Source: Ostreococcus lucimarinus (Eukaryota). From it: DNA of 64,000 nt. Below, in pieces: positions 22,397 through 53,624 of this stretch. Position numbers and translations under genes: made by a program. Below the pieces are notes generated by a model. It saw nothing but the letters and a program-made list of their open reading frames with translations. It was not told where the DNA came from and did not search any database. How positions within the stretch are numbered: the stretch's first letter is position 1; each line of letters starts with the position of its first letter. The stretch lies in NCBI GenBank assembly GCA_000092065.1, contig CP000584.1. One strand, given 5' to 3'.

Positions 22397-24469
22397 ATGA
22401 GCGACTGGGCCGACGACAGCGGCGATTTACCACCCCTGAGCGCGGGACTGCCGCCGCCACCGACGACGACGACGACGACGACGATACCGAAACCGTCGAC
22501 GTCGGTGCCGGCGCCGCAGGTCGCGTCGCCGCAGAAATCGGGATACGTCCCGCCGCATCTGCGGAATCGGCACGCGGCGGCGGGCGACGGCGGGTCGCGA
22601 GGATTCGGTGCGTCGACGACGACGGCGCGACGCGCGCGAACGACGGCGACGGCGACGACGAGAGGGAATTTTTAATCGATCGATCGCGCGCGCGCGATGA
22701 CGCGCGAACGCGTCGCGCGAGAGAGGGGACGCACGCGATCGCGATCTCGACCGCCCCGCACGATGGCGACGGGCGATAACATTGAGGCGTAACCCTGGAC
22801 GAGCGCCGAGGCGGGCGACTGACGACGAACGACGCGCGCGGTTCCGATCGAGCAGGCGGTGACGATAGACGAGGCGATGGATGGGATACCGGACGCGACC
22901 GCGGCGGCGGTGGATGGGGCGGCGGCGGCGGCGGTGGATGGGGCGGCGGCGGCGGCGGCGGACGGTTTTCGCGCGGGGAAGACTACGGCGGGACGTCGTT
23001 CGGGCGGCGAGACGATCGCGGGGGAGGAGGCGGAGGATGGGACACCGGACGGTCGCGATTCCGCAGAGAAGATAACCCGTTCGCGCAAATGGAAGAGGAA
23101 GAAGCGGCGGCGGCGAGAAACGATCCTGACTCCGAGGCGACGAAGATGTTTACCGGCGAAAACACCGGTTTGGACTTTGACCTGTACGACGACATTCCCG
23201 TGGAGACGAGCGGACGCGACGTGCCGGAGCCCATCACTTCGTTCGTCGACCTCGACCTCGGGGCGGCCGTGAACACGAACATCAAGAGATGCAAGTTTAA
23301 GAATCCGACGCCGGTGCAAAAGTACGCCATTCCAGCTTCGCTGGCGGGAAGAGATTTAATGGCGTGCGCGCAGACGGGTTCCGGTAAAACGGCGGCGTTT
23401 TGCTTTCCCATCATCGCCGGTATCTTGAAGCGCGGTCTTCAAGGCGGTCATATGAACCGCAAGACGTATCCTCTCGCGCTCGTGCTTTCGCCGACGCGCG
23501 AATTGGCGAGCCAGATTCACGAAGAATCGCGGAAGTTCGCGTACCAAACCGGCGTCGCCTCGTGCGTCATCTACGGTGGCGCTCCGGCGGTGGAACAATT
23601 CCGCGCCATGGAACGCGGGTGCGACATTCTCGTCGCCACGCCGGGTCGTTTGATCGATCTCATCGATCGCGCTAAGATCTCGTTGAGCAGAGTTCAATAT
23701 CTCGCGCTCGACGAGGCGGATCGCATGTTGGATATGGGTTTCGAGCCGCAAATTCGACAAATCGTCGACGAGCGCGACATGCCGCGATGTGGCGAGCGTC
23801 AAACGATGTTGTTCTCCGCAACGTTCCCGAGGGAAATCCAGCGAATGGCTTCGGACTTCTTGGACGATTACGTCTTTCTCACGGTCGGTCGCGTCGGCTC
23901 TTCGCACGCGTTGATCACGCAATCCGTCGAGCGCGTGACTTCGTACCACGAAAAGAGCAATATGCTTCTCGATTTGGTCGAAGCCGTGCCGGGTTTGACT
24001 TTGGTTTTCGTCGAAACGAAGCGAGGTGCGGACCAGCTCGAGGATTTCTTGTACCAAAACGGTAAGCCCGCGACGAGCATCCACGGCGATCGCACGCAGC
24101 AGGAGCGCGAGGCGGCGTTGAAATCCTTCCGAGCGGGTAAGACGCCCATCCTCGTCGCCACGGACGTCGCGGCGAGAGGTTTGGATATTCCTCACGTCAC
24201 CCACGTCATCAACTTTGACTTGCCATCGGATATCGACGACTACACGCACCGCATCGGTCGTACCGGGCGCGCGGGGAAGAAGGGTCGGGCGACGGCGCTG
24301 TTTTTAGAATCCAAAGACGGCCAAATGGCTCGCCCGTTGACGGAGCTCATGAGCGAGGCGAACCAGGAAGTGCCGACGTGGTTGACGCAAATCTCTGGCC
24401 ATTCCTTCGGCGGTGGTGGACGTCGTCGCGGTGGTGGTGGCGGGAATAGATTCGGCGGTCGCGACTACC

Positions 24470-26327: not shown

Positions 26328-28958
26328 ATGCGACTCCTCGACGGGTCGCCCTCGGCCCAATACGTCGTTTCACGCGAGCTCGTCGTTATGCTCGACGCGC
26401 CGCGCGCGGGCGTGCCTCGGCGCGTGCGCGAGCGATTCGAAAGTGCGAGCGAGACACATCCATCATCCAACGACGAACGACGAGCGGTGTCGAACGAGCG
26501 CGACGTTGAGGTAGGCTGCGAGTCAAGATACGAACAGCCTTTTCTGACGACGCGACTCCATGAAACTGACGTGACTAACGACGTGACTGACGACGTGACT
26601 GACGACGCCTCGTCGCGTGAGCTGCAGATCGCTCGAGCATTTCTCGACGCACGGTTGAACGGTGAGCACGAATACGAAGGCTTTGAAGCGCTACTGTGCG
26701 ACGAATCCGTGATCTCTCTGACGACGCGACTTCTCGCGCGCGTCGAAGAGCGCGGCGAAGCCAAATTTCCAGCGAAAATGGTTCTGAGCGCGTACATGAT
26801 TTGCTACCACGCCGATGTGGTCCTCGGTGGTTCGAACGCGAAGGAGGTACCGTGCGAAGAAACGTCGCTCATTGATTCATCCAAGGCGTTGGTTAACGCG
26901 TTCGACGCGCTCGCACTCACGATGTCGCGCTCGGGCACGTTCACAGCCACCATCACGAACGCGTTCGAGCGCGCTTGGCACACGTGGACTGCAGATTTCA
27001 AAATTTGGAAATCGAAAGACGCGTTTAGTTTGACCCAAGAGCTCATACGAATCGGTGTTGCGATGGAGTCTTCGATGATTCGTGTGTGCGGCGCTCGCGG
27101 CGCGCTCGATTCCACAGTCGATCTCGGTGAAGAACGCAACGCGATACGCTCCGCACAATCGCACGATCGCGCGCTTCTAAGAGAGAAAGTCTTCACGCTT
27201 TCGGGTAAAAGCGCAGTCGACGAGTTCGATGCGATGATTACAAGAGTTCGAGCCGCGGGCTTAAGCGACGAAGAGTCAGCGAGGGCAAAGGATACTCGCA
27301 CGGATCGGCTCGACGAACGTCGGCGTAAACGGGAAGCCACGAGCGCTCAAATCGCCGCTGCGATCGAAAAGGACAAAGAACGCGCTCGTCAGCAGATGGC
27401 TGGTGAAGAAAACGTTGTTTCGAACTTTGTCGAAATGCAAAAGGATCAGATTTTACACGAATTAATGCTGGACCCCGAGTGGAAGCTCAGAGCGCCACCA
27501 AAGTCACCCGTTGAGGACGATCCCGTACGCGAGCAGGTCGTACAAATCATGAAGAAGGCGTTCTGGGACATGGTGTACGAATCACTTGTTCATGATACGA
27601 TCGACACATCTATCGTTCGCGCTCGAATTTTCGAATGGAAAGACGCCATCATCGACGACACTTTGATTTTGGATCGCCAGACGACGGAGAGCTTGGAACT
27701 GATCCAAAATTCACTCAGCCTCATCGACGTCAACTATCTTGAAGCGAGCATCTTGCGCATGGAAAGCACACCTACAGACACATCAGAAGCTTTGCGAACC
27801 TCGCTCGATCATGGTTACACGGCTCTCAATGCGCTCGCGAATGGTTCCGTGAAGGACGATCTTAGCGCTGCGTTTGACAATCTGACGCGAGAACTCGAGA
27901 CGGCGACGAACGCGGACAAATTCACTTTATCTCGAGCGATTGCTGATGCTTTGGCGTTCTTGTTTGATTTTCGCGAGCGTATACACCAATCGATGAGCCT
28001 TGAAGCAGCCAACGAGGCGATTGATGCACTCCGCGAGACGCTCGCGGTGATGCCAGATGGCATCGAGTACGCGACAACGCGCTTCTTGCATCGATTTGAT
28101 GTGAAAGTCGGGGAGACCGAACTCGCACTTGCGTTTCCTCGCACGTGTGCTTGGCTTGAAAGCGTCGTCGAAGAGCTTCCGACGCTCGATGCGACATTTG
28201 CACCTCTTCTCGATTCTCTCAATGTCGACCGCTGGCGAGGCGTGCGTCTGAGGAGCGGTTTCGAGACTCGAGCCGAGGGCGCGCAAAAGACTTCTTCGGA
28301 AGTAATCAGTTCAACTTTACATCCGACCCGGGTCATGTCTGTGAATGGTGTTTGTCGTGTCGCCTTTGCACGATTGGTTACCAATCCCAACGCCATGATT
28401 CAAGACTTTATCCCGGAAACGCTTGAAAACGACGTGCAACGCATCGATTACTTTTGCCGTGAGTTTCAGAACATTCAAACGCTTGCCGCTTGTTTGATGC
28501 TCTCCACGCAACTCTGTCGCTTAGAGGTTTTCGTGGATGTGGACGCGCTCATCGATCGAGTCGCGGTTCTGCTCTCTTCGGAACGAGACCTACCGGCGAT
28601 GTCTCGCGTCGCCGAGGTCCTCTCCGCGACGCTCCCGACGTCCGACGGCGCCCAAACCATCACCAACATGCTTCGCAAGCTCACGGGTTCCGACGATTGC
28701 GCCAATCCGATGTCTGTCGCCATCATCAAGGCCATACGATCCGCGCTCACGATTCGTCTCCTTCACGGCTTCGAAGGCGAAGCCGTTGATAGGGCGTGCG
28801 ACGCCCGGCTCGCCGCAGTCTTCGCGTCGCGTCTCCGTCCTCGCGTCGACGCCATCGCTCGCGACGCCGCGCGAGTGATCAATCTACACGCCACAGTGCG
28901 CGCGCCCGTGGTTTCGGCCTTAGTGAACGACTTGCTCGCCAGAGATGATGAAATTTAA
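26328..28958 (+). CDS. T-complex protein 11 (TCP11/Sok1)-like protein
   Basis: The 876-aa ORF has the characteristic TCP11 segment ILHELMLDPEWKLRAPPKSP...QIMKKAFWDMVYESLVHDTIDTSIVRARIFEWKDAIIDDTL. An in-frame (DVTD/DVTN)x3 12-bp repeat lies near the N-terminus. Confidence 0.55.
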   Translation: MRLLDGSPSAQYVVSRELVVMLDAPRAGVPRRVRERFESASETHPSSNDERRAVSNERDVEVGCESRYEQPFLTTRLHETDVTNDVTDDVTDDASSRELQIARAFLDARLNGEHEYEGFEALLCDESVISLTTRLLARVEERGEAKFPAKMVLSAYMICYHADVVLGGSNAKEVPCEETSLIDSSKALVNAFDALALTMSRSGTFTATITNAFERAWHTWTADFKIWKSKDAFSLTQELIRIGVAMESSMIRVCGARGALDSTVDLGEERNAIRSAQSHDRALLREKVFTLSGKSAVDEFDAMITRVRAAGLSDEESARAKDTRTDRLDERRRKREATSAQIAAAIEKDKERARQQMAGEENVVSNFVEMQKDQILHELMLDPEWKLRAPPKSPVEDDPVREQVVQIMKKAFWDMVYESLVHDTIDTSIVRARIFEWKDAIIDDTLILDRQTTESLELIQNSLSLIDVNYLEASILRMESTPTDTSEALRTSLDHGYTALNALANGSVKDDLSAAFDNLTRELETATNADKFTLSRAIADALAFLFDFRERIHQSMSLEAANEAIDALRETLAVMPDGIEYATTRFLHRFDVKVGETELALAFPRTCAWLESVVEELPTLDATFAPLLDSLNVDRWRGVRLRSGFETRAEGAQKTSSEVISSTLHPTRVMSVNGVCRVAFARLVTNPNAMIQDFIPETLENDVQRIDYFCREFQNIQTLAACLMLSTQLCRLEVFVDVDALIDRVAVLLSSERDLPAMSRVAEVLSATLPTSDGAQTITNMLRKLTGSDDCANPMSVAIIKAIRSALTIRLLHGFEGEAVDRACDARLAAVFASRLRPRVDAIARDAARVINLHATVRAPVVSALVNDLLARDDEI

Positions 28959-45197: not shown

Positions 45198-45688
45198 CTA
45201 CGCTAATTTTCCCGCCTTCTGTAGCGCGATGCGTGCCTCGACCCGCGCCTTCGCGATTTGTGAATTTATCGCCGCCTGTCGCGCCTCGTCCGCTGGCGGT
45301 GGGGCCACGACGGGTTGTTGCGGACCAGCGCTGTGAAACGAGATTCCGTTTCGCTTGGCGAGGTACTTCTCCGTGACCCGCTTCTGTTCATCAGCGAGCG
45401 CACGAGCGAAATCTTCCTCCTCCACTGGCGATTCGTCAAACGCAAATTTTGCCCCAGTGGCGAACGCGTCGCTCGCCGACACTCCATCTCGCGCGCAGGT
45501 CTCCATGAACTCTGGGTTCCTAAAAGTCGATGACGTGAACATCAACGCGCTCGGCGTCACGCCTCGTCGTCTCGCGACGATTAAGAGGTCGTTCACTCTC
45601 TGTTGCGTCGCCTTCGTCTCCTCGCTCGTCTCGCTCGTCTCGCTCGTCGTCGCCCCGTATCTCGCCGCGATCGCCGCCACCCACGCGT

Positions 45689-45774
<86 letters not shown>

Positions 45775-45962
45775 CGATCATCGACGTTCACCCTCGTCGT
45801 CATCGCCGTCGGTCGCGCCGGTCCCACGAACGCATCCTCGCCGTCGCTCGTCGCTTCGTCCGCCGTCTGCCGCGCCGATCCAGCGCGCGCCGGTCCCACG
45901 AAGCCACCGTCGTCGCCGTCGCCGTCGTCGCTGCTTCCGTACTCTCCCACGAACGCGTCCAT
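45198..45962 (-). CDS. HCNGP-like / SAP30-binding-protein-like transcriptional regulator
   Basis: Asp/Gly-rich acidic repeats ((DDGDDGDDDDDG)x2) are followed by TKATQQRVNDLLIVARRRGVTPSALMFTSSTFRNPEFMETCARDG. This matches the HCNGP core (KLQEKIQKLYERKIKEG...KDFRNPSIYEKL). The start is at internal ATG 45962 of ORF 45198..46847. Confidence 0.55.
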
Positions 45963-46519
45963 CGTCGCGATGGGACGGCGCGACGCGTCGGCGGCGTTCG
46001 TCCGAGTGTCGCGGCGCGAACGCGCGACGCGCGAACAAAGGGTCGCGGATATTTTGGTTTTTCGAAAATTCGAATGGATGCGATCAAATCTACGTATACG
46101 GTGTGTAAAAAACGCCATCACGAGTGGATAGGGTTCTGCATCCAAATCTTTAAATCGCGCGGCGCAGCTGTCGACGTTTTGGCGCGCAAGATGACGGATG
46201 AGTTTCGACGCCGCGCCGCACACCTCGCCGCTCGACGAGGTTATAAATCTAAATCTCGAGCGAAACGAACTGCATCGATTCGATCGTGTTCCGCGCGAGC
46301 ATCGCGTCGTCATCCGCGCTTGAGGGAGCGCGCACGGACAACGCGCGCGCGAACGGCGTCGAACGAATTCGCTTGTTCCCCCGATCTCGACACATCGCCG
46401 ATCGCGCGCATCGGCGACGTCGATTTCGAGCGCGTCGCGGGAGTGTTCGGTGACGAACGCGCGCGTGGACGTGAGAACGAACGTCGTTCGTTCACCGCGA
46501 GCGGCGCTCGCGCGAAGGC

Positions 46520-49500
46520 ATGGCTGGGAAACGCGCGACGCCGGTAAAAGATGCGTCGAAAAACAAACCGAAAACGACGCCGGTGAAGAAGTCGACGATG
46601 AAGGCGCCGCGGGACGGGGCGTCGGCGCCGAATTCGCCGGCGGGGCGTGGAACGCCGCGACGAGCGACGGCGAATAAGGCAACAGAAAGAATGAAGGAAA
46701 TGGCTGTGAAGACGGAGGACATGGATGAGGACTACGCGTTCGACGGGGATGACGATTACGCCGCGGCGCCGAGCGCGCCGGCGAGCGGGCGCACGACGCC
46801 GAAGAAGTACAGAGCGCGCGTCGTGGGAGGATCAGCACCGCCGACACCGATGAGCAAGAGGTACGCTAGTAGTGGTTCTTTGATTTTATCTCCGTTGCGC
46901 GCGTGAACAGGACGGCGCGGATGAGAGAAAAGGGGAATCGCGATCAGGGCGCCCGCGGGTGCCCGCGACGCGTTTCCCGCCCGAACTGCGTCGCCGACGG
47001 CAAACGCGCGCCTCACGCGACGTTGACGCGCTTCGGGCGCGTTGAAATCGCGCGTATACATGGATGACTGACGAATATTTTTTCACCTCTTGTTTCATTT
47101 TTAACAGATCTCCGGGTGGTTCTCCGCGCAAGAGCGGAGACAGCGACAGCGGCGCGAGCGGCAACCCGAGAACGCAACTCGCGGAGCATTTGCCCGTGAT
47201 TGCGGATATCGGTGGTATGTTTGCCGATCTTGTTAGTCGTGTTCCGGGCATGGAGAACTTCTTGACGGCGATGAAGCGCCCGTTACGCGTCGCGACGATG
47301 TGCTCTGGCACGGAGTCGCCGCTTCTCGCACTCGACAAGATTGGGGACGCCACGGAAAAACTCTATGGTACGCGTCTCGCCGTCGACCACGTGTTCTCGT
47401 GCGAGATCGAACCGTTCAAGCAAGCATACATCGAGCGTAACTTCGCGCCGCCAATCCTCTTTCGCGATATTCGCGAATTAGGCGGCGACCAGGCGACGAC
47501 GGCTTACGGCGCGAAAATCAACGTGCCGCACGACGTCGACATGCTCGTCGCGGGTACTTCTTGTGTCGATTACTCCAACTTGAACAACGAGCGTAAGGGT
47601 CTCGAGGCACAAGGGGAGTCTGGTCAAACGTTCCGCGGGATGATGAACTGGATCAGAAAGAGCCAACCACCGATCATCATCTTGGAGAACGTGTGCAACG
47701 CGCCGTGGGATCAAGTGCAGAAGAAGTTTGAAGACGAGGGCTACCACGCGCGTTTCATGCGCGTGGACACGAAGCGGTTCTACATTCCGCACACGCGTAC
47801 GCGTGTGTACTTGTTTGCGTGCAAAGCGAGCGATGCATCGCTCGTCGAAGCGTGGAAGGGTATGGTAAAGTCGCTCGAGCGACCGGCGAGCGCGACGCTC
47901 GAAGCATTCCTCTTCGACGCCGACGATCCTCGTGTACACGAAGGTCGACGTATGTTGGCTCGCCCGGGTGAAGATTCGACGCGCGCAAACACTGACTGGG
48001 GACGGTGCGAATCTCGTCATCAACGCGCACGCTTGGAGGAAGGTTTGGGTCAGCGTCGCCCGTTCACGCATTGGGATGGCGGTTGCACGCTCCCCGACTT
48101 TGCATGGAACGACTGGGGTAAGGCTCAGACCGACCGCGTGCTTGACTTGATGGACATCGACTATTTACGCCTTGCGCAACTTGATATTGATTCCATGCAC
48201 AAGACTTTGGTTTGGAACCTCTCTCAAAACGTCGATCGTACCACCGGCTCGGTCGCTCCGGGAATTTGCCCGTGCCTGACGCCATCGATGGTGCCGTTCG
48301 TCACCAACCGTGGTGGTCCTCTCGTCGGCATTGAAGCTCTGAGCTTACAAGGGATTCCGGTCGATGACTTGTTGTTGACCCGTGAAAGCGAGAACCAAAT
48401 GAGCGATTTAGCCGGCAACGCGATGACGACGACCGTCGTCGGCGCTTGCATGCTCGCCGCGATGACTCTCATGACGGACAACCTCGCCGCAAAGAAGCAC
48501 AAGACGGCTCGACGCGCTTTACTGCTTGACGATGATTCCAAGGAGAGCTCGCAAACTATGCAAGGCTCGCTGACAGTCGTTCAAGCTGCTGCGGCTAAGA
48601 AGACGGAGGTCGTCGGGCAAGACAAGTTGGTGAAGCGTCCCCTCGATCTCGGCATGAAGCCAGTCGGGATGAAGGAGCTCCTCAGCAAGGCGAACAGATC
48701 TGCGCGTTTGTGCGTGTGCGAAGGTGAAACTGGCACCACTGATGCGGATTCTCTCGTCATTTGCCGTGACTGCTCTCACACGTGCTGTATCAAGTGCTGC
48801 GGGCGACCCGAACACAACTACGAGAAGCACGTCGTCGATCGCATCTTGCCGGAGGATTTCAAAGAAGACTTGAAAAACTCTCTGCCGATGCACATGAAGT
48901 TGGATGTGAGCTCGGCCAAGTTTACGAAACCGAAAGAACTTCTTGGTAAAGTGTGGGACGACTGGATGGACGCGATCAAGGCTATTGGGGAAGCTGATTT
49001 CTTGTTCCGAGGCATGAAGCGAACCAACGTCTGGCGCGTGTATTACTCGTGCGCTTCTGAGGACAAAGTACGCTTGGAATTGCGCATCGCTCCTAACGCG
49101 GCCGAGTGGTTGATCTTCGTTGATCCTTCCATCAAGAAGGGCAAACCGGAGGAGTTCCATGAACGCCCGTTGATGCGTATGCTCTTGGACAAGTCGGCGA
49201 AGAGCGTCTTGGACGGCACGTGGGAGTTCTTCTCGCCAGAGTACGCCGCGGTGCCGGTTATTCTTGAAGGTAAGGGCGAACTCGAAGATTCTTGGCAGAT
49301 CAAGCTCGGTATGTTGACCAACAGCAAGCTGAACGGTGACGTGAATTGGCCGGAGGAACGTTGGACTCAGTACGAAGTTAAGCTGAAAGATCCGAAGAAC
49401 GCGACAGAGTTTGATCGCAGCATCACCGGCACCTACCAGCTTTATGACAAATGCGACGCCGCTCAAAGTTCATTGCACAAGCGCATTGGTGGCCCGCAAA

Positions 49501-52500
49501 ATGGTCGCGAAATGTACTTCTTCATGGACCCCAGACGTAACCAAAAGGGTGAATTTGACTACTTCGTGTTTGCGGATAACCATCGTCGTTTGATGTATGG
49601 TGAAGACCGCATGGAGACGGCGCACTTGGATTTCCGAAACCTTGGACAGCCTCCTTCGGGAGATCGTTTCCGTCCGAGTGATAAGAAGGTTGTCGAACAC
49701 ATGGCTCACACGTTTGGAAAATGGACTGCTCTGCCGCAAAAGGTTGCCCTCATGCCCGCCGTCGTCCAAAACGCCGTCGTGTTGACGCCGCCGGTGAACG
49801 CCGTCCCGACTCAAGGCGAGGACTCGTGCTCGAAGGCGGTTGCCATCATGCGTTGCTCCGTTCCTTTGTCTAGCGTTGATGTCGATTTGTGGCCCGAGAA
49901 TGGATACACGACTGTGCGTCTTGACAAGAGTCATGCTACCTTCCAACGCCTCGAGTGGTTCACGTCTCGCATGGAACTTCCGAAGGTTGTGGAGAAGTGG
50001 AACCAGCTCAGCGACGATCACGCGTTGTCGTGCGATAAATTCGCTTGCTCGCGATGTGCGCCGACGCCGCCGACTCTTTTGTGGAGCCGACAAGTCGGTT
50101 CGCAAAAGATTCAAGCCCGTGAAGATCCGTTGCAGGCATCCAAATATGAACAAGCGCTCAAGTGTCGACCCGAGCCATTCGTCGTGCAATGGACTCGCGA
50201 GAAGACGACGGGCAACTTGATGATTGCTGGTAACCCAGCTACGCTCGTTCATCGTGCTCTTGCGCTTGTCGCTCCGTCTGGTGTTCGAGGCATCGAATCA
50301 AAGGCGCCGCATATGTCGTGGAGAATCGTTCGACACGACGACCGCCCGATGGACAACTTTGGGGAGTTTGAATTGAAGAGCAACCGTCACGACAAGCAAG
50401 TTGCGCAACCGCCGAACTGGAGCAAGAAGTACCCACTTCGCCCAGAACAACTGCGCTCGCTTGGGTGGATGGTTCAGCAAGAGATCAACGAAACGCCGTT
50501 CGTGGAAGAGGAAATTTGTGAAAAACTTCTTCCGGCTTTGGGCCTTCGCATGGATGGCAAGGCGGAAGTCTCAAAGGTGATTCGCGGCGGCATCGTGGCC
50601 GATCAAGTTGGTTACGGGAAAACGGCCATCTCCATCGGGGTCATCTTGGCGAACCAGCTCAAGTTCCCGACGCCCAAGCAAGCTAAAGTTGATGCTCCGG
50701 TCAAAGCGATTCCGACCAAGGCAACGCTTGTCATCGCGCCGTCTCAGTTGCTCCGCCAATGGCCGAGAGAGGTTGAGAAGTTCAGCGCGAGAGGTTCTTT
50801 GAACACGGTCGTTCTCAAGACAATGTCTGATCTCAACTCTTTGACGGCGCGAGAGGTCATGGAAGCAGATGTTGTCATCGTCGCTACGACTCTCTTCAGA
50901 TCTTCGCTGTACTTTGAGCGTCTCGCGCAACTCGCCGGTCGACCTTCTCTTCCGGATCCGAAATCTTCGAGCCAAGCGCGCCACTTCACGAGCGTGTACA
51001 AGGACACTGTGGCGAGCCTCGAAGACCAAGTCATGCGATTGACCGATAAGAAACTTGGTGTCGCTGAGGTTGCCAAACACGTTCGTTGTGGCACTTCTAC
51101 GCTCAGCGACGTCGCCGTCACAGCGGCGCCCAAACGTCTCAAGGGCGCAAAGCTCATCGAAATGACCGAAAAGGCTGGCGGCGAAGGTTACGAGTTCGTC
51201 GAGGCCTTGCACAAGGAACGCCAGCAGGCTTTGGACAAGGAGAATGTTCAAAAACCGATCAATGTTGAGCCGACAAGTGCTCCGGTCACGCCGTCCAAGC
51301 CTAAGAAGACGCCGACGAAGAAGACGCCGACGAAGAAGACGCCGACGAAGAAGACGCCGACGAAGAAGACGCCGACGAAGAAGACGCCGACGAAGAAGAC
51401 GCCGATGAAGTCACCGATCCGCGCGTCTGCGCGAAACACGCCGCGTAAGTCATACGCTGAAGATGATAGCATGGAAACTGATGATGAGATCTCTGATTGG
51501 GATGACGATGAATCGCTGGATGGCAGTGAAAGCGAGGAATTCGTCAAGGAAAAGTCGACGCCGAAGCGTAAGCGCATCGTTAAGCAACGAAGCATGGAAA
51601 TTGACGCCGATGGCAATAAAGATCATTGGGGTCTCGAAAGCGCTCAAGCTGAGTACGACTGGCGTGACATCAAGTCTGTTCCTGTCGAGCTATTCCACTG
51701 GCGCCGCGTCATCGTCGATGAGTTTACATACTTGAAGCCGTCCGATAAGGCCGTCGTCATGGGACTTCAATCTGAATCCCGTTGGTGCTTGTCTGGTACT
51801 CCGCCGGTGGGCGACTTTGCCGACATCAAGGGTACCGCTGCTTTACTCGGTATCAACCTCGGCAGCGACGAAGTTCCGCGCTATAACAAGTCGGAAATCA
51901 CGAAGGTGGAGACGTTCCAATTCTTTAAGGAGAAGCCGACACAACAATGGCACAAGCGAAGATGGGAGGTGGCGCAAGGCTTTTTGAACCGTTACATGCG
52001 ACAAAACATTGCTGAAATCGATGAGATCAAGTTCAAAGAAGATGTGTGTGATGTTCAACTTCGACCAGCTGAGCGTGCTATCTACCTTGAGCTCGATCAC
52101 TACTTGCAATCCATGGACATGAAGGCGAAGAAGAAGAAGCGAGGCGCGTCTGAGAGTGACCGCGACGCCCGTCTCGCTGCCGTCCTCGGCAACTCTTCTT
52201 CCGCAGAAGAAGCACTTCTGAAGCGCGTGGCGCACTTCGAATTGGATGACGAAGCGGGAACTGCGCTTCGAACTTGCCAAGACATCGTGAACGTTCGCAA
52301 GACTCAACAAGAAGATTGCTTGAAGGAATTCGGTGAAGCCATTCTCAAGGCGCGCGCCATGTTGTCGCAAATGTCTCAGATGCCTGACTTTACTCCGGAA
52401 GACAATCCGTTCATCCGATGGGAGAACGGCGTTCAAGGCGAAGGTATCGGTGACCCCACAGCGAGCGAACTTCTCAAGGGCGTTCTCAAGGAGCAAACCG

Positions 52501-53624
52501 AAGCCAAGGCTGCTAAGACCGCGCACCTCTTGCAAACGCGCCCGCCCGTCGGATCGACCATCGCGGTGTTTTCTGTTGAAGAGCAAGAATGGATTGAAGG
52601 TGAAGTTCGCGGTTATAGTGGTCAGTGGAAGCAAAAAGCTTCCGTCTACTACGACGCCAAGACTCGTAAGGATGAAGATTTGACCAAGGTTGACTGGAAG
52701 GTGGTCAAGGCTGTTGAAGGCGAGCCGAGCTCCACGATGGACTCTGGGAAATCCGTATCCATGAAGAAGACGAAGACGGCATCCCTCGACGATAAGCTCT
52801 GGGAGCTGCGAGAGCATACGCACGGTCTCCGCAAGTTGCAAAAAGAGCTTGTCGGTCGAGTGCGCTCTTTGCGCTTCTTCCAGTCTGTTCGTGACTTGCA
52901 ACAAGCCAAGATGGACGATTCGGTCAAGTGCGAAGCGTGCTCGAAGAAGTTTGCCAAGTCAAAGTCTGGCGTCCTATCTACGTGCGGCCATATTGGTTGC
53001 GTCACCTGCCTCAAGGTCAACGCCGAGAACCAAGAGTGTGGCGTGAAGAACTGCGATTGCGCTACTCGTGACACGTCCGTCGTGACCGCGGTCTCTCTTG
53101 GCACCGAGGCCAGCGCGGACTCCAAGTCTATCAAGACTGATGGTGGCGTCGGCGTGCACGGTTCAAAGATCATCGACATCGTCGCTCACATCAAGTCCAT
53201 CCCGGATGACGAACGAATCCTGGTCTTCGTGCAATTTCCTGACTTGATGCAACAAGTGAGCTCCGCGCTCAACGAAGCTGGTATCAAAACGCTCAAGCTC
53301 AAGGGCTCGGTGCATCAACAAACGGGCGCGCTCGACGAGTTCCAAAAAGAAAACTTGAAGAAGGATGATGCTCGCGTTCTCTTGCTTTTGAGCCGAGACG
53401 AAAGTGCGTCTGGAGCCAACTTGACGACGGCTAACCACGCCATCTTCGTTCACCCCTTGCTCACGAACACTGCTCAGGAGTACATCGCCAGCGAGACGCA
53501 AGCCATCGGTCGCATCCGCCGCTACGGGCAACAGCGCGAAGTGCGCATCTGGCGCTTCATCGCTCGCGATTCCGTCGACTCTGAAATCTTGAGTCAGCGC
53601 GCCGCTGGCTTGATGCAGAACTAA
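46520..53624 (+). CDS. DNMT5: DNA (cytosine-5)-methyltransferase DNMT5: C5-MTase + RING finger + SNF2-family ATPase; proposed 2-exon model with basic S/TPKK N-terminal exon (46520..46860), intron 46861..47107
   Basis: MTase motifs are I MCSGTES, IV AGTSCVDYS, VI IIILENVCNAP, VIII IPHTRTRVYLFA and IX/X GNAMTTTVV. The SNF2 ATPase has GIVADQVGYGKT, IVDEFTYL and helicase-C motifs (LLLSRDESASGANLT, QAIGRIRRYGQQREV). The RING finger is CEACSKKF...CGHIGCVTCL. Exon 1 (MAGKRATPVKDASKNKPKTTPVKK...TPKKY...PPTPMSK) ends AG|GTACGC. The acceptor cttgtttcatttttaacag| is a textbook pyrimidine tract; phase 2+1 recreates an Arg codon and total length is divisible by 3. The ORF-track M at 47064 lies inside the intron. 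Confidence 0.85.
51304..51408. repeat. in-frame 15-bp tandem repeat x7 (aagaagacgccgacg; encodes KKTPT x7) inside DNMT5 linker
   Basis: Six perfect copies and one variant (…gccgatg) sit between the MTase and SNF2 regions. The array continues the basic Thr/Pro/Lys theme of the proposed N-terminal exon. Confidence 0.9.

Follow-up and report, generated by a model that had tools for sequence, protein, structure and literature searches.

The DNMT5 of Cryptococcus carries a chromodomain at its N-terminus. N-terminal domains of other kinds, namely laminin-B-receptor, methyl-CpG-binding, HAND or Tudor, have been described for DNMT5b (PMC9998398), and in three microalgae, Micromonas pusilla among them, DNMT5 has been associated with heavy methylation of nucleosome-linker DNA (PMC9998398). 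In the Mamiellophyceae, which lack DNMT1, it is the only maintenance-type CG methyltransferase (PMC10538959). Here we analyze the 5' end of the DNMT5 gene of Ostreococcus lucimarinus in a stretch of 64,000 nucleotides (nt) of contig CP000584.1 (GenBank assembly GCA_000092065.1; G+C 59.6%), which we call the window and to whose positions all coordinates refer. From comparative genomics and the published intron consensus of this species we conclude that DNMT5 very probably has its true first coding exon at positions 46520-46860, and that one spliced gene encodes a product of 2285 amino acids (aa). The finding is mainly a gene-model correction, an ordinary missed 5' exon in a compact genome, with a speculative link to linker-DNA methylation.

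Probable exons and intron at the 5' end of DNMT5

The RefSeq model has two adjacent genes at this place, XP_001417392 (102 aa) and XP_001417393, the protein used as O. lucimarinus DNMT5 by Funabiki et al. 2023 (PMC10538959), which starts at the ATG at 47064..47066. The first belongs to a small open reading frame (ORF) on the plus strand (46520..46906; 128 aa, from MAGKRATPVK to PMSKRYASSGSLILSPLRA and a stop), whose residues 27-128 are identical, by exact look-up, to XP_001417392.1 / ABO95685.1, a 'predicted protein' of O. lucimarinus CCE9901. The N-terminus of XP_001417393 was established indirectly, from the residue numbering of a published alignment in which residue 110 is the V of VFSCEIEPFKQ (PMC10538959). 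Since this numbering fits translation from ATG 47064, the public annotation consists of two adjacent genes, and our proposal amounts to merging both. Pfam confirms that the long ORF has the architecture of a DNMT5, with matches passing the respective cut-offs for DNA_methylase (PF00145, 2.1e-16), SNF2-rel_dom (PF00176, 6.5e-21) and Helicase_C (PF00271, 3.9e-06), and a RING finger (zf-RING_5, 2.4e-4) below its cut-off.

In the merged gene, which lies on the plus strand, exon 1 (46520..46860) runs from the ATG at 46520 over 341 nt of coding sequence, that is, 113 codons and the AG of an Arg codon. It is followed by intron 1 (46861..47107), a GT...AG intron of phase 2 and 247 nt (1 mod 3). The 5' splice site, GTACGCT (46861..46867), lies in the context AAGAG/GTACGC, with the G of the GT at 46861. 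The branch site GACTGACG (47066..47073) is an exact copy of the extended O. lucimarinus consensus, its branch A being 36 nt from the 3' AG, and the annotated ATG of DNMT5 falls within the intron and overlaps this motif (atGACTGACG). A pyrimidine-rich tract with the 3' splice site occupies 47074..47107 (…cacctcttgtttcatttttaacAG); 16 of the 20 bases ahead of the terminal AG are pyrimidines, and this AG is the first one past the branch site (acceptor cttgtttcatttttaacag/, AG at 47106-47107). Exon 2 (47108..53624, 6517 nt through the stop codon) encodes the C5 DNA methyltransferase, SNF2-related, RING and helicase-C domains, and its first base opens the conserved coding segment (R)SPGGSPRK...QLAEHLPVI. 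Both exons together measure 6858 nt, or 2285 codons plus the stop, with AG+A as an Arg codon at the junction. Reading through intron 1 meets an in-frame stop at codon 129, and its removal gives 2285 uninterrupted codons. The predicted spliced junction, 46860/47108, reads …CCGATGAGCAAGAG/ATCTCCGGGTGG… (also written …CCGATGAGCAAGAG/ATCTCCGGGTGGTTC…); the junction-spanning Lys-C peptide would be RSPGGSPRK, as opposed to …FIFNRSPGGSPRK, and exon 1 of the merged model would contribute the peptide VVGGSAPPTPMSK. An earlier note on this DNA had described the ORF at 46520..46906, a donor at 46861 and an acceptor ending at 47107, with compatible phases and a combined length divisible by 3, all of which we reproduced from the sequence. 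It had also put the acceptor 2 bp inside the DNMT5 ORF, which is mistaken: it is 44 nt downstream of ATG 47064, where its AG starts codon 15 (AGA).

What takes this arrangement beyond chance is not the strength of the splice sites but the recurrence of donor, acceptor and phase at the homologous position in nine other lineages, as found by comparing orthologous DNMT5 N-termini, a check that the earlier note had suggested. The ten lineages are the window, seven Ostreococcus-like ones (L001, L002-4, L005/6, L007-9, L010, L011 and L012/13) and two Micromonas-like ones (L014 and L022), with a G+C content of 55-60% in the Ostreococcus-like and 67-70% in the Micromonas-like lineages. Orthologous DNA was reached through unspliced metagenome ORF calls that matched the spliced N-terminus, exon 1 alone or the Micromonas-like N-terminus, and the taxon labels of the contigs were assigned from composition, identity and synteny. 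The identity of the DNMT5 N-terminal protein to that of the window is high in all Ostreococcus-like lineages, reaching 89% in the closest, L001. An ORF resembling exon 1 lies directly upstream of DNMT5 on the same strand in 10/10 lineages, preceded by a divergent HCNGP-like gene wherever the flanks are available. Its conserved part ends, again in 10/10, with …S[KRQ]R or …GTPR at AG/GT[AG][CAT]G, in the same codon and in phase 2, and in every lineage exon 2 follows directly on a YAG acceptor and has a conserved start, (S/T)PGG(S/T)PRK in Ostreococcus or a K-rich segment. The protein sequence is conserved precisely up to the donor and again precisely from the acceptor onward. The lengths of exon 1 (341, 332, 332, 329, 323, 311, 338, 329, 431 and 446 nt) are all 2 mod 3, and none of the intron lengths (247, 230, 232, 221, 221, 310, 152, 257, 329 and 281 nt) is a multiple of 3.

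The same boundaries are visible in the nucleotide sequence. Between the window and four Ostreococcus-like lineages, identity is 0.70-0.73 in exon 1 and 0.73-0.77 in the first 600 nt of exon 2; the corresponding values are 0.51-0.54 in the intron, which is the random level, and 0.34-0.54 upstream. In a closer pair, L005/L007, it is 0.84 in exon 1, 0.49 in the intron and 0.80 in exon 2. The ratio of non-synonymous to synonymous substitution rates (dN/dS) of exon 1 is 0.08-0.35 in 10/10 pairs (Nei-Gojobori). The tails obtained by reading past the donor are unrelated to each other (YASSGS…, CVMVVF…, CVYRFR…, YVYWHM…) and extend for 14-52 residues, with stops at codons 109-163. Within the cluster of the window's own species, variants differ by 4 substitutions over the 114 residues that precede the donor and by 4 over the 14 that follow it (Fisher p = 0.005), and one variant has a frameshift just past the donor. 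As a separate observation, dS of exon 1 between distant lineages (0.70-0.92) is below that of the first 200 codons of exon 2 (>1.4 or saturated), despite the higher dN of exon 1, a hint that synonymous sites close to the 5' end are under additional constraint.

Introns of O. lucimarinus outside chromosome 2 that have been confirmed by expressed sequence tags (ESTs) contain ACTGAC in 87% and GACTGACG in 66.5% of the cases (Irimia & Roy 2008, PMC2483917), and their 5' consensus is GTGCGTG (PMC2483917). Intron 1 obeys the GT/AG rule, as do its counterparts at 9 orthologous loci, and its donor GTACGCT agrees with the consensus at 4/7 positions, including GT, C4 and G5. Orthologue donors at the same codon position are GTGCGT, GTACGT, GTGAGT, GTGTGT or GTGAGA. 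A CT[AG]AC motif is found 25-39 nt upstream of the AG in nine lineages; the tenth, L022, has only CTCAC, at 34 nt. Across the window GACTGACG is not enriched (6 observed vs 4.7 expected), and it is its position, not its count, that is informative. All six copies are on the plus strand, and at least three of the other five have an AG 30-36 nt downstream and a GTGCG[TC] donor 200-340 nt upstream, with ORF pieces joined by removal of the segment between. These segments are probably introns of this class, too, with 30-36 nt from the branch A to the AG, and are located at 22608-22852, 24957-25296/25323 and 26424-26621/26637, all on the plus strand; in the last one the motif is repeated two to four times around 26560-26604. 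Candidate introns around the other GACTGACG sites are 198-340 nt long, and intron 1 therefore resembles its neighbours. A naive scan of the window for introns (donor, branch, AG, ORF joining) was not used as statistics, as it gave mostly false positives inside long ORFs.

Like the EST-defined introns of O. lucimarinus (PMC2483917), intron 1 combines GT…AG, an exact GACTGACG, a pyrimidine tract and an AG about 30-36 nt past the branch A; its length falls in the range of about 200-350 nt that the other candidate introns of the window show. Unlike them, it has GTACGC instead of GTGCGT(G) as its donor, is absent from RefSeq and is known here from sequence comparison. By its sequence it would be an ordinary canonical spliceosomal intron of this species (GTACGC, GACTGACG, pyrimidine tract, AG), U2-type and of the class found outside chromosome 2. 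The central claim of the earlier note, that DNMT5 begins with a spliced exon and that 47064 is intronic, thus has strong support from comparative genomics and the intron consensus.

Composition and possible role of the predicted N-terminal tail

The N-terminus added by exon 1 comprises 114 residues and is conserved across Ostreococcus-like and Micromonas-like lineages. In the first 125 residues of the merged protein there are 26 K+R (21%) and 14 D+E, for a net charge of +12, distributed in a basic block (1-60), an acidic block with two conserved aromatic anchors (61-80, EDMDEDYAFDGDDDY) and a second basic block (88-125). Five [ST]Px[KR] motifs (TPVK, TPVK, TPRR, TPKK and SPRK, at T7, T20, T45, T93 and S119) occur in these 125 aa, a count reached in 1/20000 shuffles. 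Four of them (TPVK, TPRR, TPKK and SPRK) keep their positions in all eight Ostreococcus-like lineages, the window included, and TPRR extends to both Micromonas-like lineages. Conservation is strongest in the blocks RGTPRR, AFDG(D/E)-DY, TP(K/R)K-(Y/F)(K/R)ARV and SAP-TP-SKR. A single-sequence AlphaFold2 model has a mean predicted local distance difference test (pLDDT) score of 60.6 and a predicted template modelling score of 0.14, with one helix at residues 51-69, and the tail is predicted to be mostly disordered, with short linear motifs. The match of five clustered [ST]-P-x-[KR] sites, four of them held in 8 lineages, in a segment of such low pLDDT is what clustered consensus sites of cyclin-dependent kinases (CDKs) look like.

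The earlier note had called the tail histone-H1-like. The part of this description that stands is the presence of short S/TPxK motifs, beyond what shuffling gives and largely conserved in position. The resemblance goes no further: among the 172 residues of the spliced N-terminus the Linker_histone winged-helix domain of Pfam has no match with E<=1, the tail finds only a meaningless PBP1_TM match in Pfam (E = 0.08) and nothing among PDB sequences (best E = 0.95), and its middle is acidic. Nor is it Lys-rich in the manner of H1 tails, with 21% K+R and a single literal TPKK next to four other [ST]Px[KR]. We therefore rejected homology to histone H1, as the tail lacks a globular domain, is about half as rich in basic residues as an H1 tail and has an acidic core. 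The note's other observation on motifs, an internal (KKTPT)7 array, is correct: exon 2 contains 7.2 copies of a 15-nt period at 51303..51410 (plus strand), each unit being a TPxK motif. The copy number of this array varies by lineage, with 4 units in L002 and 5 in L005 against the 7 of the window. The motif recurs in the genus, since KKTPTKKTPTKTTP also occurs close to the N-terminus of P0148, an unrelated Ostreococcus protein of 450 aa.

Motifs of the form [ST]Px[KR] are both SPKK-type motifs for the DNA minor groove and CDK consensus sites, and in H1 they serve minor-groove binding and as CDK targets. Sequence alone cannot separate these two roles. Judged by its composition and motifs, the tail would be a regulatory or targeting extension of DNMT5. 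Phosphorylation at the CDK-type sites would tune an electrostatic contact of the tail with DNA or chromatin, the tail may also contribute to nuclear import, and it would stand in place of the folded N-terminal reader domains found in the DNMT5 of other groups. The whole account, with exon 1, the intron and the tail as a regulatory or targeting extension, is probably the best explanation of the locus. Its more specific part, a phospho-tunable contact with DNA or chromatin and a possible import signal, we put forward only tentatively. The acidic block with its two conserved aromatics is reminiscent of the acidic motifs with which chaperones and remodelers bind histones. It is conceivable, although distinctly doubtful, that the tail and the internal (KKTPT)n array steer the DNMT5 of Mamiellophyceae to nucleosome-linker DNA, with S/TPxK motifs in the minor groove, AFDGD-DY on histones and a CDK switch acting in the cell cycle. 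If true, this steering would account for the CG methylation of Mamiellophyceae algae that has been reported as linker-restricted and nucleosome-phasing.

With the same gene structure, the tail could instead be simply a nuclear-localisation signal or a spacer, with no contact to DNA, linker or chromatin and no cell-cycle control, its motifs being by-products of K/P/T-rich disorder. On inspection of the sequence, the basic clusters do resemble a bipartite import signal (KR at residues 4-5, K-rich 14-24); further, the tail has the higher rate of evolution (dN 0.22-0.27 vs 0.07-0.10 in the catalytic part) and is mostly disordered by prediction. However, a classical basic cluster is already present in exon 2 (TPKRKRIVKQR), the acidic AFDGD-DY block, which import does not need, is the best conserved, and the [ST]Px[KR] motifs are enriched beyond composition, in the shuffles mentioned above, and four of them hold their position in 8 lineages. 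We regard a mere localisation signal or spacer as rather unlikely, and keep the regulatory or targeting extension as the preferred reading.

The annotated start codon and other gene structures

Several observations weigh against the merged gene and the role proposed for its tail. An exact search of metagenome and metatranscriptome contigs of the Joint Genome Institute (JGI) for the spliced junction gave 0 matches, and a broader junction pattern covering six lineages gave 6 chance matches, on unrelated JGI contigs and with no flanking similarity. No spliced protein was found in word-indexed searches of protein databases or in an exhaustive HMMER search of representatives, and in the part of the supplementary tables of an O. 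tauri phosphoproteome that was available, substrings of the O. lucimarinus exon-1 peptides were not found. Positions +3 and +6 of the donor GTACGC do not agree with GTGCGTG, the consensus of the species. The window species and three close relatives have an in-frame ATG in the intron with no stop before the acceptor. Finally, DNA or chromatin contact, CDK regulation and nuclear import of the tail are derived from composition and motifs only. As to the protein searches, they returned only prokaryote-style ORF calls, which are split at the intron, and exact look-up turned up neither the 2285-aa spliced product nor the 2186-aa ORF product.

Some of the database entries met in these searches are worth a comment. 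The 90%-identity cluster P0001, whose representative is a DNMT5 fragment, is chimeric, as it also contains syntaxin-7-like and other unrelated proteins, and was uninformative as a source of hidden spliced members. In P0144 (279 aa, from a Logan assembly) the exon-1/intron region is read with T for C throughout (A>V, R>C, T>M, P>L), and the source is probably an assembled bisulfite-sequencing run of O. lucimarinus that was entered into the protein database. Several European Nucleotide Archive (ENA) fragments share a 'LSLIHI' ending, which looks like an assembly or adapter artefact.

The in-frame ATG in the intron raises the question of whether both forms are made in O. lucimarinus and its closest relatives, a spliced long form and a tail-less short isoform that would begin at ATG 47064 through an internal transcription start or a retained intron. 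In the window and in L001, L002 and L007 this ATG is 41-44 nt upstream of the acceptor, and no stop intervenes. Nevertheless, it is embedded there in the conserved branch-site context GATGACTRAC, and a pyrimidine tract hardly encodes stops, so that an open frame is expected by chance. In the other six lineages (L005, L010, L011, L012, L014 and L022) the stretch from the last stop to the acceptor contains no in-frame ATG, and the 14-15 residues encoded from the ATG to the acceptor are not conserved where it exists (MTDEYFFTSCFIFN, MTNNCMILFSRSI, MTNIPRSPICFPD). The ATG is probably a coincidence, combined with a stop-poor pyrimidine tract, and the coexistence of the two forms is improbable.

The existing public annotation, with two independent genes (XP_001417392 from 46520/46598 to the stop at 46904-46906, and XP_001417393 from ATG 47064), has in its favor that both ORFs are open and initiated by ATG in O. 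lucimarinus, and that no collection searched contained a spliced transcript. Against it stand the end of small-ORF conservation exactly at the GT, with unrelated tails beyond that carry excess polymorphism and a frameshift, the lack of conservation of the 15 codons between ATG 47064 and the acceptor, and the participation of this ATG in the branch-site consensus. Further, six of the ten lineages lack an in-frame ATG in this place. In four Ostreococcus-like lineages among them, L005 and L010-L012, some 40 codons of conserved coding sequence (…GNPRTQLAEHLPVI.DIG.MF…) precede the first Met of exon 2; this Met is at codon 7 in L014, and the L022 gene call begins at TTG. Since L005 and L010-L012 have no usable ATG, the conserved segment could not be translated there unless exon 1 is spliced on. 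We consider two independent genes very improbable, and one spliced gene remains the reading that we favor.

That the conservation of 46520-46860 is due to the other strand, where a 549-aa ORF (45198..46847, minus strand) overlaps the whole of exon 1 in the window, can be dismissed as practically without probability: the antisense frames of exon 1 all carry stops in other lineages (2, 2, 2 in L005; 1, 1, 1 in L010), the homology of the HCNGP-like gene starts at Met 45962 and this gene ends well upstream of exon 1 in relatives, and dN/dS in the plus frame is well below 1. By reaching over exon 1 (to 46847), the minus-strand ORF spuriously extends the 5' end of that HCNGP-like gene, the divergent upstream neighbour (45201-45962, minus strand; PF07818 at 25.9 bits vs a cut-off of 26.3), which contains an acidic (DGD)n repeat with a 9-nt period at 45606-45774. 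The 557-bp interval between both genes (45963-46519) is presumably a shared promoter region.

Comparison with other DNMT5 proteins and known systems

The tail appears to be absent from RefSeq DNMT5 models. XP_003063363 of M. pusilla starts at an internal Met (MVKRLPEL), 54 residues before VFSCEIEP in the numbering of the published alignment, and has neither exon 1 nor the QLAE-LP-I segment, and XP_007511811 of Bathycoccus has, by the same numbering, just 81 residues ahead of VFSCEIEP. A phase-2 exon has been missed in the same way in the Micromonas-like contigs (L014 and L022). Comparative studies have thus used at least two RefSeq models, O. lucimarinus XP_001417393 and M. pusilla XP_003063363, that come without this N-terminus of DNMT5, and a conserved region of 110-150 residues is left out wherever such models serve for domain surveys, expression constructs or the design of knock-outs and complementation. 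The corrected model would remove the spurious 'predicted protein' XP_001417392 and supply a concrete candidate for a regulatory or targeting module.

Long, partly disordered and basic N-terminal regions with targeting and phosphorylation sites are known from DNMT1, and in this the merged DNMT5 would be similar, as a maintenance-type methyltransferase with such an N-terminus. The similarity does not extend to homology, and a PCNA-binding box and RFTS, CXXC and BAH domains were undetected in the Pfam analysis; DNMT1 itself is lacking in Mamiellophyceae. With the H1 tails, and with the N-tails of sea-urchin sperm H1/H2B, the tail shares repeated [ST]-P-x-[KR] motifs of the S/TPKK type in a basic, disordered segment of a chromatin protein. 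Unlike H1, it has no globular domain or homology to it, its K+R content of 21% compares with about 40% Lys in the C-terminal tails of H1, and its middle is conserved, acidic and aromatic.

Among known systems there are also the DNMT5 of Cryptococcus neoformans and of stramenopiles (DNMT5a/b), with which the O. lucimarinus protein shares the core of C5-methyltransferase, RING and SNF2/helicase-C, and the presence of a lineage-specific region N-terminal to the methyltransferase. While in Cryptococcus and DNMT5b this region consists of folded readers, in Ostreococcus it would be a low-complexity tail of 114 aa, mostly disordered by prediction and with no domain match. Conserved across the Mamiellophyceae, this putatively disordered S/TPxK tail is a different kind of N-terminal accessory of DNMT5.

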